A DNA stretch of 64,000 nucleotides from an uncultured Pseudomonadota bacterium (GTDB taxonomy: Bacteria; Pseudomonadota; Alphaproteobacteria; Rs-D84), in contig CALABO010000014.1 in the NCBI GenBank assembly GCA_937885575.1, positions 20,726-84,725 of the forward strand. Reading direction: 5' to 3'. Below the pieces are notes generated by a model. The model ran no database searches. It had not been told where the DNA came from and saw nothing but the letters and a program-made list of their open reading frames with translations. This document shows positions 3,529 through 21,213 of the stretch, piece by piece. Each line of letters begins with the position of its first letter. Position 1 is the stretch's first letter. The position numbers and the translations under genes are program-made.

Positions 3529-4563
3529 ATGAAAAAACTGCTTGTGTTTTTTATGGTTTTGTTTGGAATAAGTTTGGGCGCGATGGCGGATGAGTTTGGA
3601 GATTTGATGGAATACGGCAAGCGTGTCGGTCCGTGTGTATTAAAGCCTGGTGGTGCTGACGTAGATGGGACATATGCTATATTTTTTAAGACTGGGGAAG
3701 CGAAACCAACGCAAGAATGTATAAATGATTTTAATAAGATTAAAGAAGAATTGGATGATTTATATAAAAACGGAGATGTTGAATATTTTGTAGTTGTGGG
3801 AAGTGCTGATTCACAAGGCGCCGCATCTGATTATCCAAATGATGTTTTGTCGGGAAATCGTTATAATTATGCGATTACAGAGATAATTCCAGAATATTCA
3901 GAGGTTAGAGATGAGGGTTGGCTGTCTGGCGATGTTACAGGGCGTTTGTTTAAGAAAGAAAGAATAAAAAATCCATTATATAGAAGTGTGTATATTTATG
4001 TTGGTTGGCGACTTGCACAGTGTCCAGCAAAGTTTGTTGGAAAATTGGATGCGTATGAAAAAGAATTGGTGGACGCTTTAGGTAAATACCCGAATTCAAA
4101 GAACAAGATACAAGACGCTTTAAATGGTGTAAAAAAGGCAAAGGAAATTTGTGGTGATGGTGGTAAAACGTTGAGAGCAAGCAAAGTTGAGCAATTGTTG
4201 GATGAGGTGTATCGTATGTTATTGGATGTTGGTGATATAGTCGTGTCAATTGGGGTCATGAATACAGATGTTGGCATTGATGTTTCCTATCAGGAGAATT
4301 CGATTGATTTGCAATATTCGAAACTTGATAATTTGCGGCGCGAGTTCGGACTTTCCGTGTGGCGGGATGAAAATGGGAATTTTAATACTGCGCGGTTGGT
4401 GTCAGATTCGATTGCCGGCGTTGTTTTGGGGACCGTTGGTGGGATTGTGACCAGTAAATTGGTCAAGAAAAATCAATTAAAGAAAGGTTTTGAAGATATT
4501 GGTTGTTATGTCGGCGGTCAATCCGTCGCCGGATACGGTGATGAGTTTTATGTAGGACGGTAA
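3529..4563 (+). CDS. secreted or membrane-anchored hypothetical protein; possible divergent OmpA-C-like segment and C-terminal glycine-zipper helix
   Basis: Signal peptide MKKLLVFFMVLFGISLGAMA. VVVGSADSQGAASDYPNDVLSGNRYNYA...NPLYRSVYIYV loosely follows the OmpA-like GHTD..G..N..LS..R...NRRVEI pattern. IAGVVLGTVGGIVTSKLV is hydrophobic. A good RBS (aaaggaaagagag) precedes the ATG. Confidence 0.6.
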   Translation: MKKLLVFFMVLFGISLGAMADEFGDLMEYGKRVGPCVLKPGGADVDGTYAIFFKTGEAKPTQECINDFNKIKEELDDLYKNGDVEYFVVVGSADSQGAASDYPNDVLSGNRYNYAITEIIPEYSEVRDEGWLSGDVTGRLFKKERIKNPLYRSVYIYVGWRLAQCPAKFVGKLDAYEKELVDALGKYPNSKNKIQDALNGVKKAKEICGDGGKTLRASKVEQLLDEVYRMLLDVGDIVVSIGVMNTDVGIDVSYQENSIDLQYSKLDNLRREFGLSVWRDENGNFNTARLVSDSIAGVVLGTVGGIVTSKLVKKNQLKKGFEDIGCYVGGQSVAGYGDEFYVGR

Positions 4564-5644: not shown

Positions 5645-5662
5645 TGACATACGGATTAACAG
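5645..5662 (+). repeat. attL core (TGACATACGGATTAACAG)
   Basis: Identical 18-mer at 16611-16628. Confidence 0.8.
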
Positions 5663-5763
5663 TCCTAGTGTCAGTATTTAAATAATTTTTAATTTTTTAT
5701 AATTTTTCTTGATTTTCTGCGGGTTCTACACTATAATATATGGTATATGAAGTTTAACGAAGT

Positions 5764-5829: not shown

Positions 5830-7014
5830 ATGAAAACAGAACGCATCAAATTTACACAGAAAACAATCGACGCATTGCCAGTGCCAGAATCAGGCCAGAA
5901 GATATATTATGACACAGATTCCAACGATGGTTTGTGCCTGATTGCATCATATGGTGGGTCAAAAACCTATTTTTTGCAAATGTTTTTTCGTGGTCGTGGC
6001 ACCAAGACCAAAATCGGGTCGGCCAAGATTATGAAATTGGCCGAAGCCAAAGCAAAGGCACACACATTGCGTGAACGTGCTGAACAGGGAATAGACCCAA
6101 GTCAGGAACGTAATGAAGCGTTGCGGGATATGACATTGAAACAGTTTTTCTATGATGTTTATTATCCAAGACACGTCAAGGTTCACACGCGCCCAAAAAC
6201 ACAGGCCAAAGATGAAACAATGTTTCGTAATAATCTGGCAATGTTTCACAGTCGCAAGATGATGAGCATAACCAAAGCGGATGTTGAACGGTTGCACGTT
6301 GAATTGAAGGACAGAATAAGTTTATACACGGCAAACCGTGCGATTGGTATGTTAAAGCATATGTATAACAAAGCCATTGAATGGGGGTATCCAGCGCACA
6401 GCGGTAATCCTGTTGTTGGTATAAAGATGTTCAAAGAACGGTCCCGTGAACGTTTCCTGCAACCAGATGAGATTAATCGGTTCTTTGCTGCGTTGTATGA
6501 AGACCCAAATGAAATGTTTAGGAATTATATTTTGTTATCATTATTTATCGGTCAGCGACGCCAAAATATGTTATCTATGCGCTGGTCTTATGTGGATTTA
6601 AAACTTGGTGTTGTGTCGTTCCCAGATTCCAAGAACGGTGACCCCCAGCGCATCCCGTTAATAACACAGGCGTGGGATATTCTGAAAGAAATGCGCCGTC
6701 ACGCAACAGACGATTGGGTGTTTTCAAGCCAGAACGGCAGCAAAAGTGGTCACGTTGAAGATTTGCATCGGCCTTGGTATGCTTTGTTAAAGCGTGCTGG
6801 CATAGAAGATTTGCGTTTGCACGATTTGCGACGCACATTTGGTAGTTATCAGGCCATCACAGGTGCAAGTTTGCATATAATTGGCAAGTCCTTGGGTGAC
6901 AAAACCAGCGCAGCAACCAAAGTTTATTCGCGTCTGACAATGGACCCTGTTCGTGATTCAATTCAGCGTGGTGCAGACAAGATGTTGGAATTCGTAGAAC
7001 AAAACAAAGCGTAA
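5830..7014 (+). CDS. int: tyrosine-type site-specific integrase (P4-like, N-terminal arm-binding domain)
   Basis: The N-terminus KFTQKTIDALPVPESGQKIYYDTDSNDGLCLIASYGGSKTYF is typical of the DUF4102 arm-binding domain. The C-terminus has HDLRRTFGS and a ..KVYSRL.. catalytic Tyr region. Confidence 0.9.
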   Translation: MKTERIKFTQKTIDALPVPESGQKIYYDTDSNDGLCLIASYGGSKTYFLQMFFRGRGTKTKIGSAKIMKLAEAKAKAHTLRERAEQGIDPSQERNEALRDMTLKQFFYDVYYPRHVKVHTRPKTQAKDETMFRNNLAMFHSRKMMSITKADVERLHVELKDRISLYTANRAIGMLKHMYNKAIEWGYPAHSGNPVVGIKMFKERSRERFLQPDEINRFFAALYEDPNEMFRNYILLSLFIGQRRQNMLSMRWSYVDLKLGVVSFPDSKNGDPQRIPLITQAWDILKEMRRHATDDWVFSSQNGSKSGHVEDLHRPWYALLKRAGIEDLRLHDLRRTFGSYQAITGASLHIIGKSLGDKTSAATKVYSRLTMDPVRDSIQRGADKMLEFVEQNKA

Positions 7015-7074: not shown

Positions 7075-8334
7075 ATGACAGCAGAAATCGTGGTCTATAA
7101 TAGAAATGCAATAGCGCTGGCTGCAGATAGTGCGGTCACCGTTGGGAGAAAAACATACAATTCGGCAAATAAATTATATATGTTGTCAAAGTATTATCCT
7201 GTCGGGGTTTTGATATATAATAGTGCCCGAATAAACAATATCCCCGTTGAAATAATAGTAAAAGAATATCGAAAACGCTTAGGACGCAGATGTTTTGATT
7301 TCCTTAAAGAATACAAAGAAGATTTCGTAAAGTTTTTGCGTTCGTTTATCCAAGAGCAAGAAAATGAAATGGATAAAAAGAACAGCATACTTGTTCAATT
7401 GCAAAATATGTTTTATTTTGTGACGTCTGGACCAGATGTGCCGCAAGTGCAACAAGGACAGGATTTTTTTGAAGAATTTAATAAACACTTGGATAGGGTT
7501 TTTGATGAAATTAGTAAAATTGTTCCCGCAGAAAAAAATGTGGATTTGACACTTGTAGATATTAAAACCGAAATGGCCAACATTATTCGTGCGTTGATGA
7601 AGATACAAGATATCAATGAACAAACACTGGATAAATTGGAAAAGTTGTTTCCATATTACATAAATATGCAAGGTAATCCAAATGTCACAGGTATCGCGAT
7701 ATGCGGTTATGGCGAAAAAGAATTTATGCCGAAAGTATATTGTTTTGAAACCTTAGGTTTTCTTAATGATTGTTTTAAATTGACAGATACCCAAACGAAT
7801 GAAAATACTGTGGAGGGGGTTATCCCGTTGGCACAACGGGATATGGCGGATTTATTTATTTCTGGCATTGATGATGGTGTTTATAAATTTATTGTCAAAC
7901 AATATGAAGATTTTATAGATGATTTATTTTCTGAAACAACCCAGGCAGATGCTGCATTTGCAAGATATGTGAAAATATATAAATCGAAAGTATCCGAGAA
8001 GATACAGGGGATTTTAACAGAAGAAAAAATACAGCCATTGTTAAACGTAATAGGTATACTTTCAAAAGAAGAATTGGCAGAACTTGCAGAAAGTTTAGTA
8101 AATTTACAGGCATTAAAACATAAAATGTCATTGAATATCGAAACTGTTGGTGGGCCTATTGATGTGGCAATAATATCTAAACACGATGGTTTTATATGGA
8201 AAAAACGAAAATTATATTTTGATAAAGATTTGAATAGTCATTTTTTTGAAAATTACTTTTCTAAAGATGATAATTGTGATAAAATAAAGACCAAAGGGGT
8301 GGATGATGACGACTTATCTGGTTGTAAATGCTAG
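7075..8334 (+). CDS. divergent proteasome-beta / HslV-like Ntn-hydrolase family protein with a large insertion
   Basis: M-T-AEIVVYNRNAIALAADSAVTVGRKTYNSANKLYML parallels TTIV...vvlAaDtrat.g....KK of the HslV/20S-beta N-terminus. Counting from Thr, Asp falls at position 17 and Lys at position 32. The C-terminal VGGPIDVAIISKHDGFIW resembles the conserved GG...va.i.kdG strand. Confidence 0.5.
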   Translation: MTAEIVVYNRNAIALAADSAVTVGRKTYNSANKLYMLSKYYPVGVLIYNSARINNIPVEIIVKEYRKRLGRRCFDFLKEYKEDFVKFLRSFIQEQENEMDKKNSILVQLQNMFYFVTSGPDVPQVQQGQDFFEEFNKHLDRVFDEISKIVPAEKNVDLTLVDIKTEMANIIRALMKIQDINEQTLDKLEKLFPYYINMQGNPNVTGIAICGYGEKEFMPKVYCFETLGFLNDCFKLTDTQTNENTVEGVIPLAQRDMADLFISGIDDGVYKFIVKQYEDFIDDLFSETTQADAAFARYVKIYKSKVSEKIQGILTEEKIQPLLNVIGILSKEELAELAESLVNLQALKHKMSLNIETVGGPIDVAIISKHDGFIWKKRKLYFDKDLNSHFFENYFSKDDNCDKIKTKGVDDDDLSGCKC

Positions 8335-8718: not shown

Positions 8719-9720
8719 ATGATAACGGTGAATGATTTTTTTGAACAAGAAAAAGAATGTGGTTATAAAGATGAAACATATTCGGTGCGCGATAATGGTG
8801 CAGTTATGCGTCACGCCAGAGAAGGCAAAATAAAACGTAAACTGGATGAAATATGGACCTTTGGGGATAAGAATACCAAGAATGGGTATATGTATTTAGG
8901 CACGGTTAGGGTGCACAGAATTGTTGCGGCGGCGTTTCTTGATAAAGAACCATCACCAACGCACGTTATTGACCATATAGATACCAACAAATGTAATAAT
9001 CGACCAGCTAATCTGCGTTGGGTCACGAGATTGGAAAATGCATTGTCTAACCCAATAACAAGGAAACGAATAATAGCGTGTTGTGGTAGTATTGAAAAAT
9101 TCTTAGAAAATCCTGCATTGTTGAGAGAAGGTAGTGTAGACCAAAACTTTGATTGGATGCGGACCGTATCCCCAGAAGAAGCAAAAATCAGCAGAGATAA
9201 ACTGGAACGTTGGGCCAAAGAAGATTCTATGCCGACGGGTAAAGGAAAATTGGGCGAATGGGTATACCAAAAAGATGCGGTTGAAGAAGAACAAGAAGAC
9301 AATAATGACGAATATGAACAGGTCACCCAGTCAGAAACACCAAATGCTGTCCAGATTAACTGGCACACGCCAACTTTATTTCCTTTATGTCCAAAACAGC
9401 CAGGGGATAACCCATTGCAAGAATATTTGGATAAATTGGTTGAAGATGCCGTCTTCGCAACAAATCAATATGGAAATTCAATGGTTTTAAAAGCGGATTT
9501 TAATAAAGAACGTAATGCGATTTTTGTGGCCACTTACACAGATTCAGAAAGTGCGGCGAAAGGGTATGCGTTGGCCAAGATAGAATATGATAACACCAAC
9601 AATGTTTTTCGTCACGAATCCAGGGGAACATTTTTCTTTGATGATGGTGTAATGAAATATTTTACCACAGAACGCGGGTATGAGTGGGATGGCGAAGAAG
9701 TTTTTGATGATTTATGTTAA
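8719..9720 (+). CDS. HNH endonuclease (phage homing-endonuclease type) with an unknown acidic C-terminal half
   Basis: HRIVAAAFL..HVIDHIDTNKCNNRPANLRWVTRLEN is an HNH_3-type motif. The upstream YSVRDNGAVMRH resembles NUMOD4. Confidence 0.75.
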   Translation: MITVNDFFEQEKECGYKDETYSVRDNGAVMRHAREGKIKRKLDEIWTFGDKNTKNGYMYLGTVRVHRIVAAAFLDKEPSPTHVIDHIDTNKCNNRPANLRWVTRLENALSNPITRKRIIACCGSIEKFLENPALLREGSVDQNFDWMRTVSPEEAKISRDKLERWAKEDSMPTGKGKLGEWVYQKDAVEEEQEDNNDEYEQVTQSETPNAVQINWHTPTLFPLCPKQPGDNPLQEYLDKLVEDAVFATNQYGNSMVLKADFNKERNAIFVATYTDSESAAKGYALAKIEYDNTNNVFRHESRGTFFFDDGVMKYFTTERGYEWDGEEVFDDLC

Positions 9721-9843: not shown

Positions 9844-11352
9844 ATGACTGATACACCAAAGAAAGATATATTGGAATATTTACAATGTATGGTGAACACG
9901 GAAACACCGACCCCACCAAAGGTTGTAAATGATATGTTGGATTTAATTCCTGACAGTGTTTGGGCTGATGATGGTGCTAAAATACTATGCCCAGCGTGCA
10001 AAGATGGTATATTTTTGCGTGAAGCAACTCTTAGGATTTTGCGTAAAAAATATGAACAAATGGGGCCAGTCGCATTTCGTAAACACCAAGATGAAATAGT
10101 TGACCATATATTGCGTAATCGTATGTTTGGAATTGCAATATCGTATCGTGGGTATCGGGTGACCAAACGTAGTTTATATACTTGCAGTAATAAATTTGCA
10201 GGTATAGATAATATATATTTTAATGAAGATTATGGTCGTTATGTACAAGATAAATCTGGTAAAGAAGTAGAAAAGCAATGTTTCCATTTTATTGAAAATA
10301 TTGATGAAGTTTCCAAGTTTTTTGAAGGCAAAGGGGTAAAGAATATGCATTTTGATGTAATTATTGGTAATCCGCCGTATCAAACCAACGATGGTGGAGC
10401 TGGTGCCAGCGCAACACCCATTTATAATGATTTTGTGGACCAAGCCAAAAAATTAAATCCACGTTATCTAACGATGATTATCCCTAGTCGTTGGTTTTCA
10501 GGTGGTAAAGGGCTAGATGCATTCAGAAATAGGATGTTGACCGATAAAAAGATGAGTAAGTTAGTCGATTTTTTTGATGCAACAGATTGTTTCCCTGGGG
10601 TTGATATATCTGGTGGTGTTTGTTATTTCCTATGTGATAACAACAAAAACAAAGAGTGTGAAGTATGCACCGTTAGAAATGGGGTAACATCTTGTATAAC
10701 AAGACCATTGTTGGCATATGGTTCTGATAGTTTTATTCGTTTTAATGAAGCAACGTCTATTGTTGAAAAAGTAAAAAGTTTTGATGAAGAATCTTTTGAG
10801 GAATTAGTTAGTTCGAGAAAACCTTTTGGCCTTGGTACAAAATTAAACATCAAGAAGAAACAAACAAAAGAAGATGATGTTCAAATTTATGCATACCCTG
10901 ATAATGGTTTTGTAAATCGTTCTGAAATACAAGTCAATAGAGAATGGATAAATAAATATAAAGTTTTAATGGGTAAAGCATATGGTGAAAGGGGAAGTTT
11001 TCCATATTGGGTTTTAGGAAAACCGAAAATTGTTACCCCTGGGACTTGTTGTTCGGAAACATATTTGGTTGTTGCTCCTGATAATTCTGCTAAAATAGTA
11101 CAAAATGTGTCCCAATATATCCAAACAAGATTTTTCAGATTTTTGGTTTTATTGAAGAAAAACACTTTAAACGCTCCTAAAGGGGTTTACAAATTTGTCC
11201 CAAAGCAGGATTTTAGTAAAGAATGGACTGATGAAAAATTATATAAAAAATATAATCTTACCAAAGATGAAATAGCGTTTATAGAATCTATGGTCAAACC
11301 AATGGATAAAGATACAGAAATTGTAGATAATATAGATATAGACAATGAATAA
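9844..11352 (+). CDS. N6-adenine DNA methyltransferase, Eco57I-like gamma class (NPPY)
   Basis: FDVIIGNPPYQ has NPPY at nt 10369-10380. The N-terminal TPTPPKVVNDML resembles motif X. The motif I position reads ILCPACKDGIF, which lacks the GxG. Confidence 0.8.
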   Translation: MTDTPKKDILEYLQCMVNTETPTPPKVVNDMLDLIPDSVWADDGAKILCPACKDGIFLREATLRILRKKYEQMGPVAFRKHQDEIVDHILRNRMFGIAISYRGYRVTKRSLYTCSNKFAGIDNIYFNEDYGRYVQDKSGKEVEKQCFHFIENIDEVSKFFEGKGVKNMHFDVIIGNPPYQTNDGGAGASATPIYNDFVDQAKKLNPRYLTMIIPSRWFSGGKGLDAFRNRMLTDKKMSKLVDFFDATDCFPGVDISGGVCYFLCDNNKNKECEVCTVRNGVTSCITRPLLAYGSDSFIRFNEATSIVEKVKSFDEESFEELVSSRKPFGLGTKLNIKKKQTKEDDVQIYAYPDNGFVNRSEIQVNREWINKYKVLMGKAYGERGSFPYWVLGKPKIVTPGTCCSETYLVVAPDNSAKIVQNVSQYIQTRFFRFLVLLKKNTLNAPKGVYKFVPKQDFSKEWTDEKLYKKYNLTKDEIAFIESMVKPMDKDTEIVDNIDIDNE

Positions 11353-11860
11353 ATGTTCTTTGATAAAATCTTGCACACGCGTTAGGGACCTTGGGGAAGT
11401 TTTTACCCCGCGTAAAATTGTGCGGGATATGTGTAATTTGATTCCGAAAGAAGTGTGGAAAAATATAGATGCAACTTTTTTAGAACCTGCGTGTGGAAAT
11501 GGCAATTTTATAATTGAAATATTAAATAGAAAATTAAAACGCTGTAAAACAATCGATGAATGTGTTCGTGCCCTGAAATCTATTTATGGTGTAGATATAA
11601 TGCAGGATAATGTTGAAGAATGTCGGTGCAGAATGCTGGGTATTGTATTGGCTGAAATCCAAAAAAAAGAATGTGTATGTTGGCATAATATTAAAGATTT
11701 TGTTGATGTATTAGAAACGAATATCATCTGTGGAGATACATTAACAATGTTGGATTGTAATGGCGAAGATTTAAAATTTAAAGATTGGAAAACTGGTGAA
11801 TTTGAAACACTGAAACAGATGTTGAATGCAGAACCTGTGCAAACAGAATTAAATTTATAA
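11345..11860 (+). CDS. methyltransferase N-terminal-half-like protein (motif X + intact SAM motif I, no NPPY)
   Basis: GEVFTPRKIVRDM (motif X) and FLEPACGNGNF (motif I). The start overlaps the upstream stop by 8 nt. Confidence 0.6.
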   Translation: MNKCSLIKSCTRVRDLGEVFTPRKIVRDMCNLIPKEVWKNIDATFLEPACGNGNFIIEILNRKLKRCKTIDECVRALKSIYGVDIMQDNVEECRCRMLGIVLAEIQKKECVCWHNIKDFVDVLETNIICGDTLTMLDCNGEDLKFKDWKTGEFETLKQMLNAEPVQTELNL

Positions 11861-11869
11861 GGATGCAAT

Positions 11870-14470
11870 ATGAATATCTATGTTATTTCAAATCCTAATG
11901 ATGGAAGAAACCTTGTAAAGGTAGGGCAAACAAAACGAAGTTGGGCAGAGCGTGAAAAAGAATATCGTACACACGGTACCAATCCGCAAGTTTGGCATAT
12001 TGAATATGATACAACCTTAACAGATGATGACATTAAGCACGTTTTAATCAATGATTTGCACTATACAACCGAAGGAACCGTCGGGGATGAATGGTATGTG
12101 ATTCCAGATGGTGAAACAGAGAAAGATTTTGCTAACAAAGTCAAAGCAGTGATAGTTTCTTTGAAACACAATGAACCTTTGGATTTATTAAGAACACAAG
12201 ATTTTGACCCCAGGGATGAGCAGAAAGAATGTGTTAAGAAAACTTTGACAGCATTTAATGCTGGTAGTGACAAATTCCTTTGGAATTGCAAAATGCGTTT
12301 TGGGAAAACTTTCACAACATATCAGTTGATGAAACAGGCAAATTTTCAAAATATATTGGTTTTAACTTGGAAAGTTGCGGTTGAAAAGGGATGGAAGGAA
12401 GATTTATTGTCGCATCGTGATTTCAAAGGCATTAACTTTGTAAACAAGGATGCATTGGCAACTTTTGATAAATCCAAGCGTAATGTCGTGTTCTTATCAA
12501 TTCCTTTGCTATTGGCGAATACATCCAAAGATGCGAAGGCAGCGGAAGATTCTGAAACAGAAGATGATGCGGCGATTTCAGATGCCAGTATCAATGCATT
12601 TGCAGATAAAATTAAATCAATTGCAGATATGAACTGGGATTTATTGGTAATCGACGAAGCACATTATGGAACACGTGCCAAAAATACCAAAAAGATTTTA
12701 GAAAAATTAAAATACAAAAGGAAACTAGAATTATCAGGAACGCCATTCAAAATATTGGATGACGCAGAATACCATTCTGATGAAATTTATAATTGGACAT
12801 ACAAACAAGAACAGGCAGCAAAATATGGGTGGAAAGGACCAAAAGACCAAAATCCATATAAAGATTTGCCAGATATGCACATTTATACTTTCGATGGTGC
12901 ACGTGAACTGATAAATGATTTTTCAGATACTGTGTTCAATATCAACGTATTGTTTAAAACACATACAGAAAAAGATAAAAATAATAAACCTGACCCCACA
13001 ACAGCGACGTTCGTAAATTTGGATTCTGTAAAAAGAATGATTGATTTTATGTGTGGTGAGCAATTTGACCTGACAGAAGACAAAGATATTAAAGAATATG
13101 ATGTGGTTTTGCCGTATTTCCAAGATATGGTTGATAAAAACAAAAAATCAATCTGGTTTTTGCCTGATGTTGCGTCTGTCTGTGCAATGGAAAAATTATT
13201 GAATAACCATAAAATCTTCAAGAATTATAAAATAATAAATGCTTCTGGGGCGGGTGAAGGGTCCAGTGCAAAATCATTAGATAAGTTTCACGAATTGGAA
13301 CAGAAAACAGATAAAATTATTTGTTTGTCTTGTGGTATGTTGAACACAGGTGTGACTATCAGGCCTTTAAATTCTGTTGTTATGTTGCAGGACAAGCATT
13401 CGGCACAAGATTTCTTTCAATCGATATTTAGGTGTCAAAGTCCTTGCCCACCCGATAAAAGCGATTGTTATGTGTTTGATTTTAACCCGCAGCGTTATTT
13501 CAATAATATGTTGGAATTTTCAAAGGTTAATTCAAGTAAACGTAACCCACGTGAAGTGTTGGAAGAAAACCTTATTGAAACACATTTATATATTGATGGG
13601 AATATGATTGCAACCAACTATGATGATATTATGCAATATGTAAGTTTTGAAGTTAGTCCTGAACGCTTAAAAAAGTATTTTATCAGGTCAAATAATATCA
13701 AAGTTGAAACATTGGAAAATTCGGCAAAAGATATATTAGAAATCATTGATAGTATCCCATATTATAAAAAAGAAACTAAAACAGCAGAAAAGACACAGAA
13801 AAAAACTGGGAACAGCAAGAAAAAACAAGGGAAAAAACCACCTATATCCCCAGAACGTAAAAAAGCATCAGAATATGATATTCGTAAGGCAAAGTTGGAT
13901 ATTTTAATTTCCAGTTTGACGATATTTATTTATATCACAAATGCCCAAGAATCAAATGTTTATGAAATAATCACAACCAAAGAACCCGATTTGTTCAACA
14001 AGATTTGCTTTATTGATGTAGAACAATTCAAAAAATTATATGACTATAAAGATAAAAATGGACGCAGCTTCTTCAAACACGATATTTTGGATAAAGCGAT
14101 TGCCAAATTCAAAAATGAAGAATTTGTGTCGCGTGACTGGGATGAAATTTTACGTGATGAATTTGGTTTGCCACGTGTGGTTGCAACAAAGAAAATTACT
14201 GGCAATCAATTTTCTTTTGATGAAATTGGGTTAAAAGCAGGTGCCGAATTAACTTTTGCTTTAGACCCAAATAAAAGATGCTATGTTGCACCTGATTTAA
14301 GGAATGTGACATACCAAGCAAATTTATATTCTTTGTCTGATTTGGCCAGAATATTGGCAAAAGAAATGGGTGGTAAAGATTGGGAACATCGTGGCCCAAA
14401 ATATTTTGAATATCGTGGGGTTAAATTATCAAAAATTGTGGAAGACATAAATGCCCAATTGGATAGTTGA
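11870..14470 (+). CDS. T5orf172 (GIY-YIG-like) nuclease domain fused to an SF2 DEAH helicase (restriction res-subunit-like)
   Basis: The N-terminus IYVISNP..LVKVGQTKRSWAEREKEY...GDEWYVIP follows the T5orf172 pattern. Walker A is RFGKTFT (about aa 145), DEAH is LLVIDEAHYG (aa 262-265), and motif VI is like QDFFQSIFRCQSP. Confidence 0.75.
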   Translation: MNIYVISNPNDGRNLVKVGQTKRSWAEREKEYRTHGTNPQVWHIEYDTTLTDDDIKHVLINDLHYTTEGTVGDEWYVIPDGETEKDFANKVKAVIVSLKHNEPLDLLRTQDFDPRDEQKECVKKTLTAFNAGSDKFLWNCKMRFGKTFTTYQLMKQANFQNILVLTWKVAVEKGWKEDLLSHRDFKGINFVNKDALATFDKSKRNVVFLSIPLLLANTSKDAKAAEDSETEDDAAISDASINAFADKIKSIADMNWDLLVIDEAHYGTRAKNTKKILEKLKYKRKLELSGTPFKILDDAEYHSDEIYNWTYKQEQAAKYGWKGPKDQNPYKDLPDMHIYTFDGARELINDFSDTVFNINVLFKTHTEKDKNNKPDPTTATFVNLDSVKRMIDFMCGEQFDLTEDKDIKEYDVVLPYFQDMVDKNKKSIWFLPDVASVCAMEKLLNNHKIFKNYKIINASGAGEGSSAKSLDKFHELEQKTDKIICLSCGMLNTGVTIRPLNSVVMLQDKHSAQDFFQSIFRCQSPCPPDKSDCYVFDFNPQRYFNNMLEFSKVNSSKRNPREVLEENLIETHLYIDGNMIATNYDDIMQYVSFEVSPERLKKYFIRSNNIKVETLENSAKDILEIIDSIPYYKKETKTAEKTQKKTGNSKKKQGKKPPISPERKKASEYDIRKAKLDILISSLTIFIYITNAQESNVYEIITTKEPDLFNKICFIDVEQFKKLYDYKDKNGRSFFKHDILDKAIAKFKNEEFVSRDWDEILRDEFGLPRVVATKKITGNQFSFDEIGLKAGAELTFALDPNKRCYVAPDLRNVTYQANLYSLSDLARILAKEMGGKDWEHRGPKYFEYRGVKLSKIVEDINAQLDS

Positions 14471-14988: not shown

Positions 14989-15198
14989 TTATGCGATTGG
15001 TTGCACATTTTGTTGGTGCTCGGCAATCCAAGCATCCAAATCGTCTTTTTTATAACGAATATTGTGGCCCCAGCGCACGTATGGAATTTTATATTTACCC
15101 GTTGCACGCCAGGTGTTTAATGAACCAACCGTAGTGCCCAAATATGCGGCAGCGGCCTTCTGGTCCATCAACGAATTATTTATTTGCATTTCAAACAT
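14989..15198 (-). CDS. AlpA/excisionase-family helix-turn-helix protein
   Basis: 69 aa. LMDQKAAAAYLGTTVGSLNTWRATGKYKIPYVRWGHNIRYKKDDLDAWI is a typical AlpA/Xis HTH. Confidence 0.75.
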   Translation of the reverse strand: MFEMQINNSLMDQKAAAAYLGTTVGSLNTWRATGKYKIPYVRWGHNIRYKKDDLDAWIAEHQQNVQPIA

Positions 15199-15361: not shown

Positions 15362-16255
15362 TTAAAGTGGGTGTATATCTGCATCGGTGAATCGTGGCCT
15401 GAAATAAACTTCTTTGGTGTTGGCAATCGGAAAACAGGTGGGCCTTAATTCAGGATATCCTTCAAAAGCGACAAATATGCAATGGCACATTTTGTCATCT
15501 GTAAGAACTTGGTATCTGGTATATTTGAAATTATCAACCAAATCTTTTTTACTGATGGTTTGGTTTGGGTGTTCAATGTAAAATTTAATCCATTCGTATC
15601 GTTTGCTGTCAGGTCTTAACTTGTATATGAGTGTGGTTTTTGTGCCATCGCAATCGCATAAACGACCATCATCTGTAAGCGTCACGGTGTGACGTTTAAT
15701 TGGGTATGTTTTTTGTAAATTGGCAAAGTTAATTTTTATATCACGATATGATGTTTGGTAATGTGGTTGTGTTGGCACAGCAACAATCCAGTTGTATATG
15801 ATGTCCAATTCCCATTCGTCTGGCAATATAACCGTTATGCGTTTGTTATATCCTTTTGGGTCATAGTTTTTATGCTTATGGATGTTTTTGTTCATCACGG
15901 TGTGATGTTCTGTCCAATCTGGCCAAGCAGGGTCAGCAATGCCTGTGACCGTAATAGCACCAGATTTAATCAGGCCATATAACACACCAAGGGCCTTCGT
16001 CATTTGTCTGTTATAATGGTTATTGACTTTATTGTCTTCATCGTATTTATCGTCTGGTGGTATAATTGGGCTTCCAAATGCGTCACCGTGCGTTAAAAAC
16101 GCATAATTGGTTGACCGCACATATTCCATTCTGTCGCATAATTGTTCGTTGGACTTCGTGCGTGGTTCCCAGCCAAATGCGATATATTCGCAGGCCTGTT
16201 TTAATGTGCATTGGGATTCAATAGGGGGAATAATAACTTTCTTTTTCTGCTTCAT
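15362..16255 (-). CDS. hypothetical protein (island cargo)
   Basis: Long AT-rich ORF. ATG at 16255 is preferred over TTG at 16270. No recognisable motif. Confidence 0.6.
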   Translation of the reverse strand: MKQKKKVIIPPIESQCTLKQACEYIAFGWEPRTKSNEQLCDRMEYVRSTNYAFLTHGDAFGSPIIPPDDKYDEDNKVNNHYNRQMTKALGVLYGLIKSGAITVTGIADPAWPDWTEHHTVMNKNIHKHKNYDPKGYNKRITVILPDEWELDIIYNWIVAVPTQPHYQTSYRDIKINFANLQKTYPIKRHTVTLTDDGRLCDCDGTKTTLIYKLRPDSKRYEWIKFYIEHPNQTISKKDLVDNFKYTRYQVLTDDKMCHCIFVAFEGYPELRPTCFPIANTKEVYFRPRFTDADIHPL

Positions 16256-16390
16256 AACCAATCCTTTCAATACAATATGATTCCCACATCCCCACCTGCA
16301 TCTTAATATAGTTCAACGAAGTGTTTTTTCAATGTGTTGCACCGAATTTAATGGGTGTTTTTTGTGGTATCCACCACCCCTATACCCCAT

Positions 16391-16403
16391 CCCCCCCCCC
16401 CCC
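16391..16403. repeat. homopolymeric C13 (G13 on the minus strand) tract
   Basis: Counted directly. It lies about 135 bp upstream of the 16255 start, on the gene's strand. Confidence 0.9.
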
Positions 16404-16537: not shown

Positions 16538-16583
16538 AACTTTGCAAAAAGAAAAGGGATTCTGCTGAACCCCTTGGAATCTG

Positions 16584-16635
16584 TGGCTCGGGCAACTGGA
16601 CTCGAACCAGTGACATACGGATTAACAGACCTTAC
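16584..16635 (-). pseudogene. tRNA-Asn(GUU)-like 3' fragment (anticodon loop, T arm, acceptor 3' strand, CCA); no D arm or 5' half
   Basis: The minus strand reads CTGTTAA-TCCGT-ATGTC-ACTGG-TTCGAGT-CCAGT-TGCCCGA-G-CCA. The upstream sequence cannot form a D arm or an acceptor 5' strand. Confidence 0.65.
16611..16628 (+). repeat. attR core (TGACATACGGATTAACAG)
   Basis: Identical to 5645-5662. It overlaps the anticodon-loop/variable-region part of the tRNA-like fragment and ends 10 bp from the rplQ stop codon. Confidence 0.8.
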
Positions 16636-18489: not shown

Positions 18490-21213
18490 TTACATCTGAA
18501 TTTCGGTTACTTTTTCAATTGGTGCCGCATATTCGCCACACATTACGCCGTCAAATTTTTCTTGGCAATCATCGCACACATATTTTGTTGTTATACCTTC
18601 GTCGTTTTTCTTTTCTTTGACATAGTCCGATTCAGCAAGGTGTGTTATGTCTTGTTCTTTTGCGCACTCGGTTGTTGTGGTTGTAATCGTGCAAGTGCCA
18701 CCACTGTAAAACGCTTGCTTGGTGACAAGGCTTATCATACTACCATACTTGTTTAATACAACAACCTGGCTCGAATTATGCGACATCAATTCAAGTTTTT
18801 TCGCAAGGTCTGCATTATCGATTACATACGATGCACCACCGTTTGCTAAACCACCAACTTCATTGTTATATAATCTTTCAAAAAGATTGCTAATTGGTTC
18901 CACGGTTTCGCAAATTGTTTTATCATCTTCTGTTCTGCATTTTACGGAATCTTTATCGTATCCCATCATGTAGCAAATCATGCGTTTTTCATCATCGCTT
19001 TGGGCCTTTAACGCGTCCGCCACCAGTTCATCATATTTTGCGCGATAATTTTCGGTTGCCTTATCCAATGCAGAATTAAATATCATGCGCACATACGATT
19101 CAATTAAATGTGGAAATCCACCGTTTCCTGTATAGTTGTTACCGCCACGCCATTTATCGCCACGACCTTCGACACATGTTTTTACAGTTGGGTCTGTTTG
19201 TAATACATTTACTTTCTGTTGGGCTTTATTTTCAACATTCAAATAGGCGGATTTTAGACGACCCTGCGTAGATGTTTCGGTAACACCACTTATATACGCA
19301 TCCATTGATGTGTGATGGAATCTTGGTTGTTTCGTGTTACCCGATAGATAATTATCATCAAACGTTAACAACCCAAAATTTATCAATCCATCAATAACTG
19401 TATCACCATTCTCATCTTTATAAGGCATCAGTGAATTCGTGCCGATTACGGTGTCGTCATCAAACGCTTGACATTCAGACAAGCTGCCACAAACCTCGAT
19501 AACCTTTTTTTGCACCGCTTTTTGGCATGCTTCAAGTAAATTATTATCGATGTTCAGGAATATACCCTGGGCAATTTCTTTAAGGTTGTCGTCTGTTTTT
19601 GTTCCATCGTATTCATACGTGCACCCCGTCAATTTTTCCTTCGGGCACATTTCGACGATTGTTTCGGTGTCCAATCCAATACATTGGGTGTAATCTTCGC
19701 CACAGCGGTCTTCGGATTGCAAACACGCCTTAAATTCGTTGGTGCATGAATCGACACGCATTGATTTCAACCGTGCGCGGACATAGTTCATGATTGCCGA
19801 TTCGGCGGCTTCGCATGGGTCGATTTCAACCTTGCACACCGAACGCAATGTGTCCGGCCGCGTAAGGCACATGTCATATGAACCCTCTGGGTCATTGGGG
19901 TCCATTGTGTCGTGGCATGCCTTTTGGAAACAGTTCGAAATATTCGAAATGCACGATGTGCGCAGGTTCGATTCCACAATCAATTCTGCAGATTTTATTT
20001 GCGGTGCGGCCTCTCGCAAAAAGGCGTCCCATACTTGGTCGCGGACATTGACGCATTCTTGGGTCACGGTCATGCACAGTGTCTTTTTCGCATCCAACGT
20101 ATCATACGTTTCGGCGGAAATTTGTATCTTTGATGATGTGCCTTTGATTGTTTTTTGTTTGGCCACTTTTCCTTCGGTTTTCTTTGCCGTGGAATTTGCA
20201 CGCGCCGCTAAATCGACACAGCCCGTAAAATCATCACCGCAACCGCCGGTTGTTTGCATGCATTGTTTGAATTGTACTGTGCATTGCCCAAGGTCGTATT
20301 TGTTCGCGTTGCGGTATTGTTCCAATGCGGCTTCGCGCATGGCGCTTTGTGCGGCGTAAAGTTTTTGTGCGCTTTGTGTGCGGGCCTGGCGTAAACTGTT
20401 TTCATACGCGGTGCAATCGGAACGCACGCGCTGTTTATACATTAAATCCATCAATGTCGATTGCGACTTACATTCGGGAATTTGTGCGTTGCAAAGTTTT
20501 GCCGCCGCGCGATAAAGTGCATCACCGGTTTTGTTGGCAATTGAAACGCCGTCCGATGAGAAATCAAAAATATCTTCGGCATCGGCATCAAAGTCCAGAT
20601 CCAGCGAATTCCACGAACTTAAATCCAATGATTGACGTTTGGATTTCGCCGCATCCGCCGTTACGCGTTTTGTCACCGAATCGGTTTTCGACATAACCGC
20701 ATCGACCGCGTCGCCCATTTCTATGCGTTCAACGCCAACGGTCGCAAGTTGATAACTTTGTTCGTCAAGTTTTTGAATCTCTTCGAGGATTGCATCGTAT
20801 TCGGCATTTTTATCACTGCAAATGCAGCGCCCGCCGTTCGCGTTGTCCAACATACAGAATGAATCCATGCAGCCGCTGAACTTGCCCCAGCACACTTGGT
20901 CAACCGCGGTGTTTCCCGTGGCCGCCGCGACCTTGGTGCCGGTGTTGATTACGCTTTGTTTCGCGGCACGTGCATTTGTTGTCGTTGATGGTTGGACCGT
21001 TGCCGCACGACCGCGTTGCGTTGTGGGTTGTGTTGATAGTTGTTGTGTGGCACTGCGTGGTGTAACGGTACGTGGTGTTGTGGTGGTTGAGGTTTCTTGT
21101 GGTGCAACAGTTGGACGCACAGATCGTGCGGTGGTGGTTGTAGATGGCCGTGTTGCGCCAAATGCGGCGGACGCGCAGGCAAGAATTACCAATGCAAAAG
21201 ATATCCGTTTCAA
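18490..21213 (-). CDS. secreted cysteine-rich protein, paralog family member (907 aa)
   Basis: Signal peptide MKRISFALVILACASAAFG, a Thr/Pro/Arg-rich N-terminal region, and dozens of Cys. Includes the modules QCTVQFKQCMQTTGGCGDDFTGC and SCTNEFKACLQSEDRCGEDYTQC. Confidence 0.85.
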   Translation of the reverse strand: MKRISFALVILACASAAFGATRPSTTTTARSVRPTVAPQETSTTTTPRTVTPRSATQQLSTQPTTQRGRAATVQPSTTTNARAAKQSVINTGTKVAAATGNTAVDQVCWGKFSGCMDSFCMLDNANGGRCICSDKNAEYDAILEEIQKLDEQSYQLATVGVERIEMGDAVDAVMSKTDSVTKRVTADAAKSKRQSLDLSSWNSLDLDFDADAEDIFDFSSDGVSIANKTGDALYRAAAKLCNAQIPECKSQSTLMDLMYKQRVRSDCTAYENSLRQARTQSAQKLYAAQSAMREAALEQYRNANKYDLGQCTVQFKQCMQTTGGCGDDFTGCVDLAARANSTAKKTEGKVAKQKTIKGTSSKIQISAETYDTLDAKKTLCMTVTQECVNVRDQVWDAFLREAAPQIKSAELIVESNLRTSCISNISNCFQKACHDTMDPNDPEGSYDMCLTRPDTLRSVCKVEIDPCEAAESAIMNYVRARLKSMRVDSCTNEFKACLQSEDRCGEDYTQCIGLDTETIVEMCPKEKLTGCTYEYDGTKTDDNLKEIAQGIFLNIDNNLLEACQKAVQKKVIEVCGSLSECQAFDDDTVIGTNSLMPYKDENGDTVIDGLINFGLLTFDDNYLSGNTKQPRFHHTSMDAYISGVTETSTQGRLKSAYLNVENKAQQKVNVLQTDPTVKTCVEGRGDKWRGGNNYTGNGGFPHLIESYVRMIFNSALDKATENYRAKYDELVADALKAQSDDEKRMICYMMGYDKDSVKCRTEDDKTICETVEPISNLFERLYNNEVGGLANGGASYVIDNADLAKKLELMSHNSSQVVVLNKYGSMISLVTKQAFYSGGTCTITTTTTECAKEQDITHLAESDYVKEKKNDEGITTKYVCDDCQEKFDGVMCGEYAAPIEKVTEIQM

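Follow-up and report, generated by a model that had tools for sequence, protein, structure and literature searches.

Type ISP restriction enzymes, such as LlaGI and LlaBIII, combine a nuclease, a superfamily 2 (SF2) translocase, a gamma-class N6-adenine methyltransferase (MTase) and a target-recognition domain (TRD) in a single polypeptide. Here, we describe a locus at which the same activities appear to be shared between separate proteins. It lies in a 64,000-nucleotide stretch of DNA, hereafter the window, from an uncultured alphaproteobacterium of the Rs-D84 lineage (assembly GCA_937885575.1, contig CALABO010000014.1, positions 20,726 to 84,725). Three open reading frames (ORFs) are concerned; we refer to the products of ORF1, ORF2 and ORF3 as M, S and R. 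As a concept, the association of an MTase, a helicase and a GIY-YIG protein is known. Morgan et al. (2009) proposed that the MmeI-like protein YeeA (DnmA), the helicase YeeB and the GIY-YIG protein YeeC form a restriction-modification (R-M) system. A preliminary description of our locus, which took its arrangement to be undescribed, was therefore too strong on that point. Homologues of the DnmA-YeeB-YeeC cluster in Vibrio crassostreae alter phage sensitivity.

We consider it likely that M, S and R constitute a three-subunit, ATP-dependent R-M system, carried on a genomic island that bears an integrase. What the sequences show directly is the identities of the domains, the preservation of catalytic residues, the close association of the three genes, variability of the TRD, the setting in mobile and defence islands, and purifying selection. 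The coordinates of all features are collected in Table 1.

Of the systems described, Type ISP is the one that the family would resemble most in its mode of action. The predicted activities are the same: a nuclease, an SF2 double-stranded (ds) DNA translocase motor, a gamma-class N6-adenine MTase and a single C-terminal TRD. LlaBIII is also the best structural match of R, and single-chain fusions of R with M occur naturally among the relatives. The differences are equally clear. There are three polypeptides instead of one, and S remains separate even in relatives with fused R and M. The N-terminus of R is of the GIY-YIG/T5orf172 type rather than an Mrr-type PD-(D/E)xK nuclease. Furthermore, the half-methylase S is an extra subunit. 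Hence, lacking both the single chain and the Mrr nuclease, the locus does not encode a Type ISP enzyme, and searches of the PDB gave no sequence-level match between the window's proteins and LlaBIII. The suggestion, made in the preliminary description, that Type ISP-like parts are split over polypeptides with GIY-YIG in place of Mrr agrees well with the domains, the LlaBIII fold match, the R-M fusions and the swappable TRD. The DnmA-YeeB-YeeC cluster is similar in having three genes, for a gamma-class N6-methyladenine (m6A) MTase with a TRD, an SF2 helicase and a T5orf172/GIY-YIG protein, in lying in a low-GC, horizontally acquired region, and in being a predicted R-M system. However, DnmA is MmeI-like and much larger, whereas ORF1 matches Eco57I only. 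The helicase and T5orf172 protein are separate in that cluster but fused in R, with the nuclease at the N-terminus. In the papers on the cluster that we consulted, no half-methylase subunit is described.

All three ORFs are intact and full length. Their close packing is as first reported: ORF1 overlaps ORF2 by 8 nt (ATGAATAA) and a 9-nt gap separates ORF2 from ORF3. Shine-Dalgarno-like AGGA/AAGGA sequences precede ORF1 and ORF3. Compared with relatives, the ratios of nonsynonymous to synonymous substitution (dN/dS), which are rough owing to saturation of dS, were 0.28 for M, 0.09-0.15 for S and 0.07 for R. Judged by these ratios, all three genes are under purifying selection, and R is the best conserved.

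The product of ORF1 is a predicted adenine MTase with its own TRD. It matches the Pfam family Eco57I (E=4e-29) and has the sequence FDVIIGNPPYQ at residues 170-180; both agree with the initial assignment as Eco57I-like. No Pfam domain of the MmeI_ series was found in ORF1 at E<=0.01. PADLOC matches were to MTase_II (3e-58) and to positions 862-1359 of the REase_MTase_IIG profile (PDLC03626). The motifs occur in the order X (TETPTPP), I (ILCPACKDGIFLRE), II (FGIAIS) and IV (NPPY, nt 10369-10380), and are followed by a variable C-terminal domain. An AlphaFold2 (AF2) model of M had a pLDDT of 82 and a pTM of 0.79. The nearest folds were CamA (E=8e-18, TMq 0.55), then BREX PglX/BrxX, M.TaqI and MmeI, all of which are gamma-class N6-adenine MTases with a C-terminal DNA-recognition domain. 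Thus, in the model, M shares with CamA, PglX/BrxX and M.TaqI a fold in which the MTase domain is followed by a DNA-recognition domain. M differs from these proteins in that identity is just 12-16%, in cofactor motifs described below, and in its genetic dependence on S and R as neighbours.

Variability along M was measured as column entropy in an alignment of 60 M proteins sampled via the neighbouring R gene. Residues 1-275 form a conserved block (~0.8-1.0 bit), in which K53, G55, R59, E60 and NPPYQ are invariant. The most variable block follows and conserved helices complete the protein (Table 1). A profile built from the 120 best matches of M had suggested that no variable TRD was present. 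This was a sampling bias, and the profile is misleading because the top matches share a TRD; resampling via R reveals the domain. A Pfam scan of the ORF1 C-terminus at E<=10 returned nothing useful.

The C-terminal part of M varies independently of the remainder. Within the window's clade, M proteins whose N-termini are 86% identical can share only 28-47% identity in the TRD; the converse also occurs. At a Polaribacter metagenome-assembled genome (MAG) locus there are two tandem M paralogues (L069:3241-6945), identical through NPPYQ and divergent beyond it. Three M genes are found at one locus of a Flavobacteriaceae MAG (L015:1245-6915). Such multiple tandem genes look like multi-specificity or allele switching. 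Taken together, the alignments identify the C-terminal part of M as a swappable, recombining TRD that behaves as R-M specificity domains do. The presence of such a TRD within M explains the absence of HsdS. No Methylase_S/HsdS match was obtained among the seven island proteins scanned, and no specific HsdS search was made in the relatives' loci.

In one relative, 61% identical, M is split into N-terminal (168 aa) and C-terminal (319 aa) parts, the break falling just before motif IV (L002:7693-9187). The PADLOC MTase_II profile PDLC03375 (348 positions) corresponds to the C-terminal part of this split M only.

The cofactor motifs of M are unusual. Across the family, the sequence of motif I is FLDP-x-x-K-S-G-VFLRE, in which Lys invariably takes the usual place of the first Gly. 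Motif II reads GIAIT, with Ala in 90% of proteins at the usual position of the ribose-binding acid. In the window's clade, residue 49 is Cys, where 98% of the M family have Asp, and a Cys-x-x-Cys (Zn-ribbon) insert has been lost.

ORF2 encodes a half-methyltransferase. Its Pfam match, to N6_Mtase (E=3e-6), is restricted to profile positions 23-98. The preliminary description credited S with motifs X and I only. In addition to X (GEVFTP) and I (FLEPACGNGNF, nt 11477-11509), we find motifs II (YGVDI) and III (ICGDTL); motif IV (NPPY) is absent. In an alignment of 10 S proteins, the motifs of the family are canonical (GEVFTP, FLEPACGxGNF, YG(V/I)(D/E)(I/L) and NIxxGDxLT) and the protein ends just short of the expected position of motif IV. 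Comparison of S with the N-terminus of M by hhalign gave a probability of 97.8% (E=9e-13), which identifies S, at the level of sequence, as a paralogue of the N-terminal third of M. The best PDB sequence match of S was a Type I HsdM. Weak MmeI_Mtase matches were confined to proteins of the S family.

S is not a gene fragment. The S family has at least 7,999 cluster representatives; most of the best 120 stand alone, with lengths of 204-237 aa, and the separate gene is kept even where R and M are fused. This large standalone family, the dN/dS of S and its persistence beside R-M fusions instead mark S as a dedicated, conserved third subunit. In the window's clade S is shortened. Our best guess is that M requires S as a partner, for cofactor binding or for regulation. 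S keeps the canonical S-adenosylmethionine (SAM) binding motifs X, I, II and III; M has lost two key positions, and only M has the catalytic NPPY and the TRD. The break in the split M described above falls about where S ends, which fits a swap of half-domains. A bolder and more doubtful idea is that S represents a mechanistically new kind of R-M subunit, which might form a composite or switchable active site with M, or might sense SAM and so gate the choice between modification and restriction.

Several further observations concern S. A locus in a Mollicutes MAG has two S genes (L016:4156-5327). The phage protein families phrog_21201 and phrog_4376 match S alone. A single profile, phrog_11371, matches the C-terminus of M and then S, which is also their order in the window. 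These families hint at M-S fusions or standalone S-like proteins in phages. A search for S-M fusions found none; the one candidate, P0182 (629 aa), has a low-complexity extension and probably a mis-called start.

ORF3 encodes the putative nuclease and motor. The N-terminal pattern IYVISN..VKVGQT..R28..GDEWY(E74) is of the T5orf172 kind. The assignment made in the preliminary description holds for the pattern, and not as a formal match of the window's protein, which is sub-threshold (E=0.0098, 16.8 bits against a cutoff of 20). Nevertheless, at E<=0.001, 23 of 41 aligned R relatives match T5orf172 and 21 of 41 match MUG113. These matches, together with conservation of the signature columns, secure the nuclease assignment. 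Arg28 is aligned with Arg in most relatives. A helicase devoid of nuclease catalytic residues, which the preliminary description had allowed for, is not what we find, as these residues are conserved.

The motor matches ResIII (E=3e-15) and SNF2-rel_dom (1.6e-5). The sequences RFGKT (residues 143-147), VIDEAHYG (260-267) and QSIFRCQ (517-523) are all present, as had been noted before, and the SF2 columns GKT, DEAH, SGTP and Q..R..Q (motifs I, II, III and VI) are invariant among R relatives, as are R115, E117 and Q118. R also matches positions 152-590 of PDLC03626. In the AF2 model of R (pLDDT 79.7), an alpha/beta nuclease domain at the N-terminus is followed by a pair of RecA-like lobes, then by a helical region and, at the C-terminus, by a small alpha/beta module. 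In a Foldseek search, the top match was DNA-bound LlaBIII (4xqk, Type ISP; E=6e-12), followed by Snf2-family dsDNA translocases, EcoR124I HsdR and SauUSI; TM-scores were low, as expected for a multidomain query.

Beyond the motor, residues F686, Y688, E694, L708, F709, F720, F735, F747 and E751 of the helical region are kept in all clades. Conversely, the last ~100 residues are confined to the window's clade and are absent from the ~747-aa and canonical relatives. They include an 80-aa module, which accounts for the match of ORF3 to PDC-S57, a single-gene candidate of PADLOC (~210-220 aa). The C-terminal 170 aa of R match the PDC-S57 profiles with E=1e-17 to 3e-18. Proteins of ~200 aa with the same module consist of T5orf172 plus the module; in the window, it is instead appended to an 866-aa motor protein. 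Elsewhere, the module follows T5orf172/MUG113 in ~200-aa proteins, forms arrays of 2-10 tandem copies, accompanies HARE-HTH, and is found on a GmrSD protein. It may be a DNA-binding accessory of T5orf172 nucleases. A Pfam scan of the ORF3 C-terminus at E<=10 gave nothing useful, and so no support for RAMA or DUF4357 in the C-terminal pieces.

The three genes travel together. A pattern scan of one genome per species matched at least 599 stretches, at least 597 of which encode R relatives. The record labels include Bacteroidota, Bacillota, Pseudomonadota, Actinomycetota, Spirochaetota, Planctomycetota, Saccharibacteria and one Heimdallarchaeota MAG. At the R loci inspected, a ~500-aa Eco57I-type gene and a small gene of ~215 aa lie just upstream. 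Linkage was assessed with hidden Markov models (HMMs) built for the three proteins, with which the best 80 loci were scanned; the 56 loci with at least 3 kb of upstream DNA were informative. S and M were upstream of R on the same strand in 52 of these 56 loci, always in the order S-M-R. The survey of triplet conservation that had been proposed for this locus thus bore out the linkage. The only clade in which the order M-S-R was seen is that of the window, which also comprises L001 and L002. Together with the shortened S, the changed residues in M and the extra C-terminal module of R, this order makes the window's copy a derived sub-variant.

In other hosts, the module occurs on Mycolicibacterium and Sphingopyxis plasmids, on a Firmicutes integrative and conjugative element (ICE) and in a temperate phage from human faeces. 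Many loci are chromosomal and beside other defence genes. In some relatives, genes are inserted between M and R. These encode RhuM, DUF1016/YhcG, AAA_21, Schlafen/AlbA_2, HEPN_Apea, Bro-N or FRG proteins, and there are also apparent toxin-antitoxin pairs. A published listing places both RhuM and DUF1016/YhcG inside or beside Type I R-M operons. On Enterococcus/Lactobacillales plasmids, R and M are fused (~1,456 aa) and a separate small S, named 'N-6 DNA methylase', lies upstream. In these T5orf172-helicase-Eco57I proteins, the parts corresponding to R (residues 16-558) and M are true homologues; they differ from the window, which has separate R and M and the order M-S-R, in being one 1,456-aa chain with R ahead of M. 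The PADLOC profile PDLC03626 (1,359 positions) covers both R and M, including the helicase region.

The preliminary description had called the arrangement undescribed, which goes too far. Admittedly, we found no study of the S-M-R family in the literature searched (T5orf172/GIY-YIG with helicase and methylase, PDC-S57, Type ISP with GIY-YIG, and split methyltransferases), and it is not described in a 2023 inversion survey or a 2025 R-M review. On the other hand, the family is widespread, in at least 597 species-representative genomes and on plasmids and in a phage, its members carry generic RefSeq annotation, and its fused form is modelled by PADLOC. Among PADLOC models, only the generic MTase and IIG profiles and PDC-S57 were matched. 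Hence, no named defence system is recognised, although the fused form bears the label REase_MTase_IIG. There was no NCBIfam match at cutoff; ORF1 and ORF2 scored far below threshold with the MADS MAD2, BREX PglX and Alw26I-family methyltransferase models. Single-sequence PDB searches with ORF1 and ORF3 gave no match and profile searches marginal ones only (RapA, HsdR, PglX and HsdM), with no solved structure of meaningful sequence similarity.

The family is also set apart from the remaining R-M types. It resembles Type I systems in being multi-subunit with an ATP-driven translocating R subunit, in the match of S to HsdM, and in having RhuM and DUF1016 in or beside the operons. It differs in lacking an HsdS subunit with its two TRDs and carrying the TRD in M, and in that the nuclease is GIY-YIG and not PD-(D/E)xK. 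In Type III systems, Mod is a beta-class MTase with an internal TRD and Res has a C-terminal PD-(D/E)xK nuclease, whereas M is gamma-class with a C-terminal TRD and the GIY-YIG nuclease of R is N-terminal. In contrast to Type IIG/IIL (MmeI-like) enzymes, the nuclease resides on a different protein from the MTase and is fused to an SF2 ATPase motor. S-M-R is thus distinct from Type ISP, Type I, Type III, Type IIG/IIL and DnmA-YeeB-YeeC.

From these features we infer methylation activity, the modified base, complex formation, translocation-coupled cleavage and a role for S, as follows. With its C-terminal TRD, M would recognise a DNA site that is short and probably asymmetric, and would methylate adenine (m6A) there, so marking self DNA. 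S, an obligatory accessory half-methylase, would act together with M, in all likelihood by providing or sensing the cofactor. R would be recruited to M bound at unmodified sites and would translocate along dsDNA using ATP. As with Type ISP and Type I enzymes, nicking or cutting by the N-terminal GIY-YIG nuclease would then take place at a distance from the site.

The case for an R-M system rests on a methylase with a swappable TRD that is tightly linked to a nuclease-motor and, in natural fusions, joined to it. It also rests on the genes inserted between M and R, some of them of kinds listed in or beside Type I operons too (RhuM, DUF1016/YhcG), on the occurrence of the module on mobile elements and in defence neighbourhoods, on purifying selection of all three genes, and on the precedent of Morgan et al. 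(2009). Some observations weigh on the other side. The literature searched holds no experiments on the S-M-R family. The conceptually closest cluster to have been tested, DnmA-YeeB-YeeC of B. subtilis, showed no restriction or phage defence. The cofactor motifs of M are non-canonical throughout the family (Lys for Gly and Ala for the acid), with Cys49 in addition in the window's clade, such that M alone could be inactive. Finally, residue 56 of R is Lys in the window's clade and a conserved His in other clades.

A first alternative is that the locus is a decayed or domesticated R-M relic: M, with or without S, would serve as an orphan epigenetic methylase and R would have lost restriction, the conclusion drawn for DnmA-YeeB-YeeC of B. 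subtilis. The B. subtilis cluster, which is analogous and gave no phage or transformation phenotype, is consistent with such a relic. So are the changes derived in the window's clade: the M-S-R order, loss of the Zn-ribbon insert and D49C in M, the His to Lys change in R and the shortened S. However, these changes are conserved across the clade and not scattered. Moreover, none of the three genes is truncated, purifying selection acts on each of them, with R the best conserved, and TRDs are still exchanged within the clade, implying ongoing selection on specificity. We therefore regard a relic as unlikely.

Unusual motifs in M also bear on a second alternative: a non-canonical defence in which methylation is not a self mark. 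S and M would then be a sensor of DNA or SAM that licenses R, and the outcome would be abortive infection or a BREX-like block of replication. Phage counter-defences that deplete SAM are known. The contrast between the atypical cofactor motifs of M and the canonical motifs of S fits this scheme, as does the presence of BREX PglX among the nearest folds to M. Yet NPPY and the rest of the catalytic core of M are invariant, and TRD swapping is a hallmark of systems in which modification and restriction share a specificity. Nor did the scan of the island proteins turn up any other gene of BREX or DISARM. As the preliminary description had it, PglZ, BrxC, DrmB (DUF1998), DrmC (PLD) and HsdS are all missing from the seven proteins; DrmA is missing too, and PglX matches were very weak (E>1e-3) and to MTase motifs. 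Such a defence seems to us very improbable.

Least probable is that the module serves a mobile element, in addiction or establishment or by methylating or remodelling entering element DNA as an anti-restriction device, like the methylase-helicase proteins of some plasmids and phages: the integrase island here and the ICEs, plasmids and temperate phage elsewhere would suit this, but ordinary R-M systems are equally mobile, protective methylation needs no conserved GIY-YIG nuclease coupled to a translocase, and many loci are chromosomal beside other defence genes, L001 having no integrase nearby.

The putative R-M module of the window is carried on an 11-kb integrative island. The GC content falls to 33-39% between the island repeats, compared with 45-50% outside. 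The ends of the island are marked by a 22-nt direct repeat, TGACATACGGATTAACAG[T/A]CCT. A tRNA 3'-half-like fragment, with a T-arm (GGTTCGAGTCC), acceptor stem and CCA, is located directly after the rplQ stop codon (16583-16632, minus strand); no complete tRNA gene was found at the island end. The repeat and the fragment suggest integration at a secondary site resembling a tRNA-derived attP core.

Table 1. Positions of the M-S-R genes, their domains and the features of the surrounding island in the window.
Feature	Position	Strand	Description
ORF1, M subunit	9844-11352	+	502 aa; predicted gamma-class N6-adenine DNA methyltransferase with own TRD
ORF2, S subunit	11345-11860	+	171 aa; half-methyltransferase
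ORF3, R subunit	11870-14470	+	866 aa; predicted GIY-YIG/T5orf172 nuclease, SF2 translocase and C-terminal domains
M catalytic domain, aa 20-275	9901-10668	+	conserved block, ~0.8-1.0 bit column entropy (60 M proteins)
M target-recognition domain, aa ~276-450	10669-11193	+	most variable block, 2.2-2.6 bits (60 M proteins)
M conserved C-terminal helices, aa 451-490	11194-11313	+	WTDEKLYKKYNLTKDEIAFIESM; conserved across family
R nuclease domain, aa 1-99	11870-12166	+	T5orf172/GIY-YIG type; I3, Y4, K17, G19, T21, E74 invariant or nearly so
R motor, aa 108-540	12191-13489	+	SF2; R115-E117-Q118, GKT145-147, DEAH262-265, SGTP289-292, Q517..R521..Q523
R C-terminal helical region, aa 661-770	13850-14179	+	conserved in all clades; lies partly in PADLOC PDC-S57 match (693-860)
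R C-terminal 80-aa module, aa ~779-857	14204-14440	+	window's clade only; PADLOC PDC-S57 1e-17; pLDDT 86-92
Left copy of 22-nt direct repeat	5645-5666		likely attachment (att) site; repeat family D7; 21/22 identical to right copy
Right copy of 22-nt direct repeat	16611-16632		abuts rplQ stop codon
Island tyrosine integrase	5830-7014	+	Pfam Phage_integrase 4e-17, Arm-DNA-bind_3 7e-12
Small HTH_17 protein (excisionase/AlpA-type)	14989-15198	-	Pfam HTH_17 E=3e-8

Other genes of the island lie on both sides of the module. Directly upstream of the operon is the gene for a 333-aa protein (8719-9720, plus strand). Its N-terminus bears an HNH_3 domain of the homing-endonuclease type (E=3e-15), whereas the C-terminal ~220 aa could be assigned to no family. 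A 419-aa protein (7075-8334, plus strand) aligns over nearly its whole length with phrog_5990 (E=2.6e-96), a phage family whose function is unknown; Pfam domains are lacking, and PADLOC gives a weak CARF/HEPN-type match only (E=1e-3). The integrase, HNH and phrog_5990 genes are missing beside the same three genes in L001 and L002, and so are not components of the system. At the right end of the island is a 302-aa ORF with no family match (15362-16270, minus strand). Near this end, a homopolymer of ~14 G on the minus strand (~16390-16403) may be a slippage-prone tract or a weak point of the assembly. Two large predicted secreted proteins flank the island region: one of 344 aa, with a signal-like N-terminus and no Pfam match (3529-4563, plus strand), and one of 907 aa, which is Cys-rich and has a Thr-rich N-terminus (18490-21213, minus strand).

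In summary, the concept of an MTase acting with a helicase and a GIY-YIG protein is known; S-M-R as a widespread family with a half-methylase subunit is not described in the literature searched. The half-methylase is the one truly odd feature of the family. None of the R-M types compared here has anything equivalent, and this subunit could reveal a new coupling between cofactor binding and modification or restriction. If our reading is correct, a second nuclease superfamily would be brought into translocation-coupled cleavage by the joining of a GIY-YIG nuclease to a motor of the Type ISP/Type I kind. The swappable TRDs are a possible source of new methylation specificities. Because PADLOC models and RefSeq names give the parts no more than generic labels ("Type II MTase", "Type IIG" or "DEAD/DEAH helicase"), defence catalogues probably under-count the family. 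If active, it would be among the most widespread uncharacterised ATP-dependent R-M architectures, with members in many bacterial phyla and one archaeal MAG, on plasmids and in a phage.

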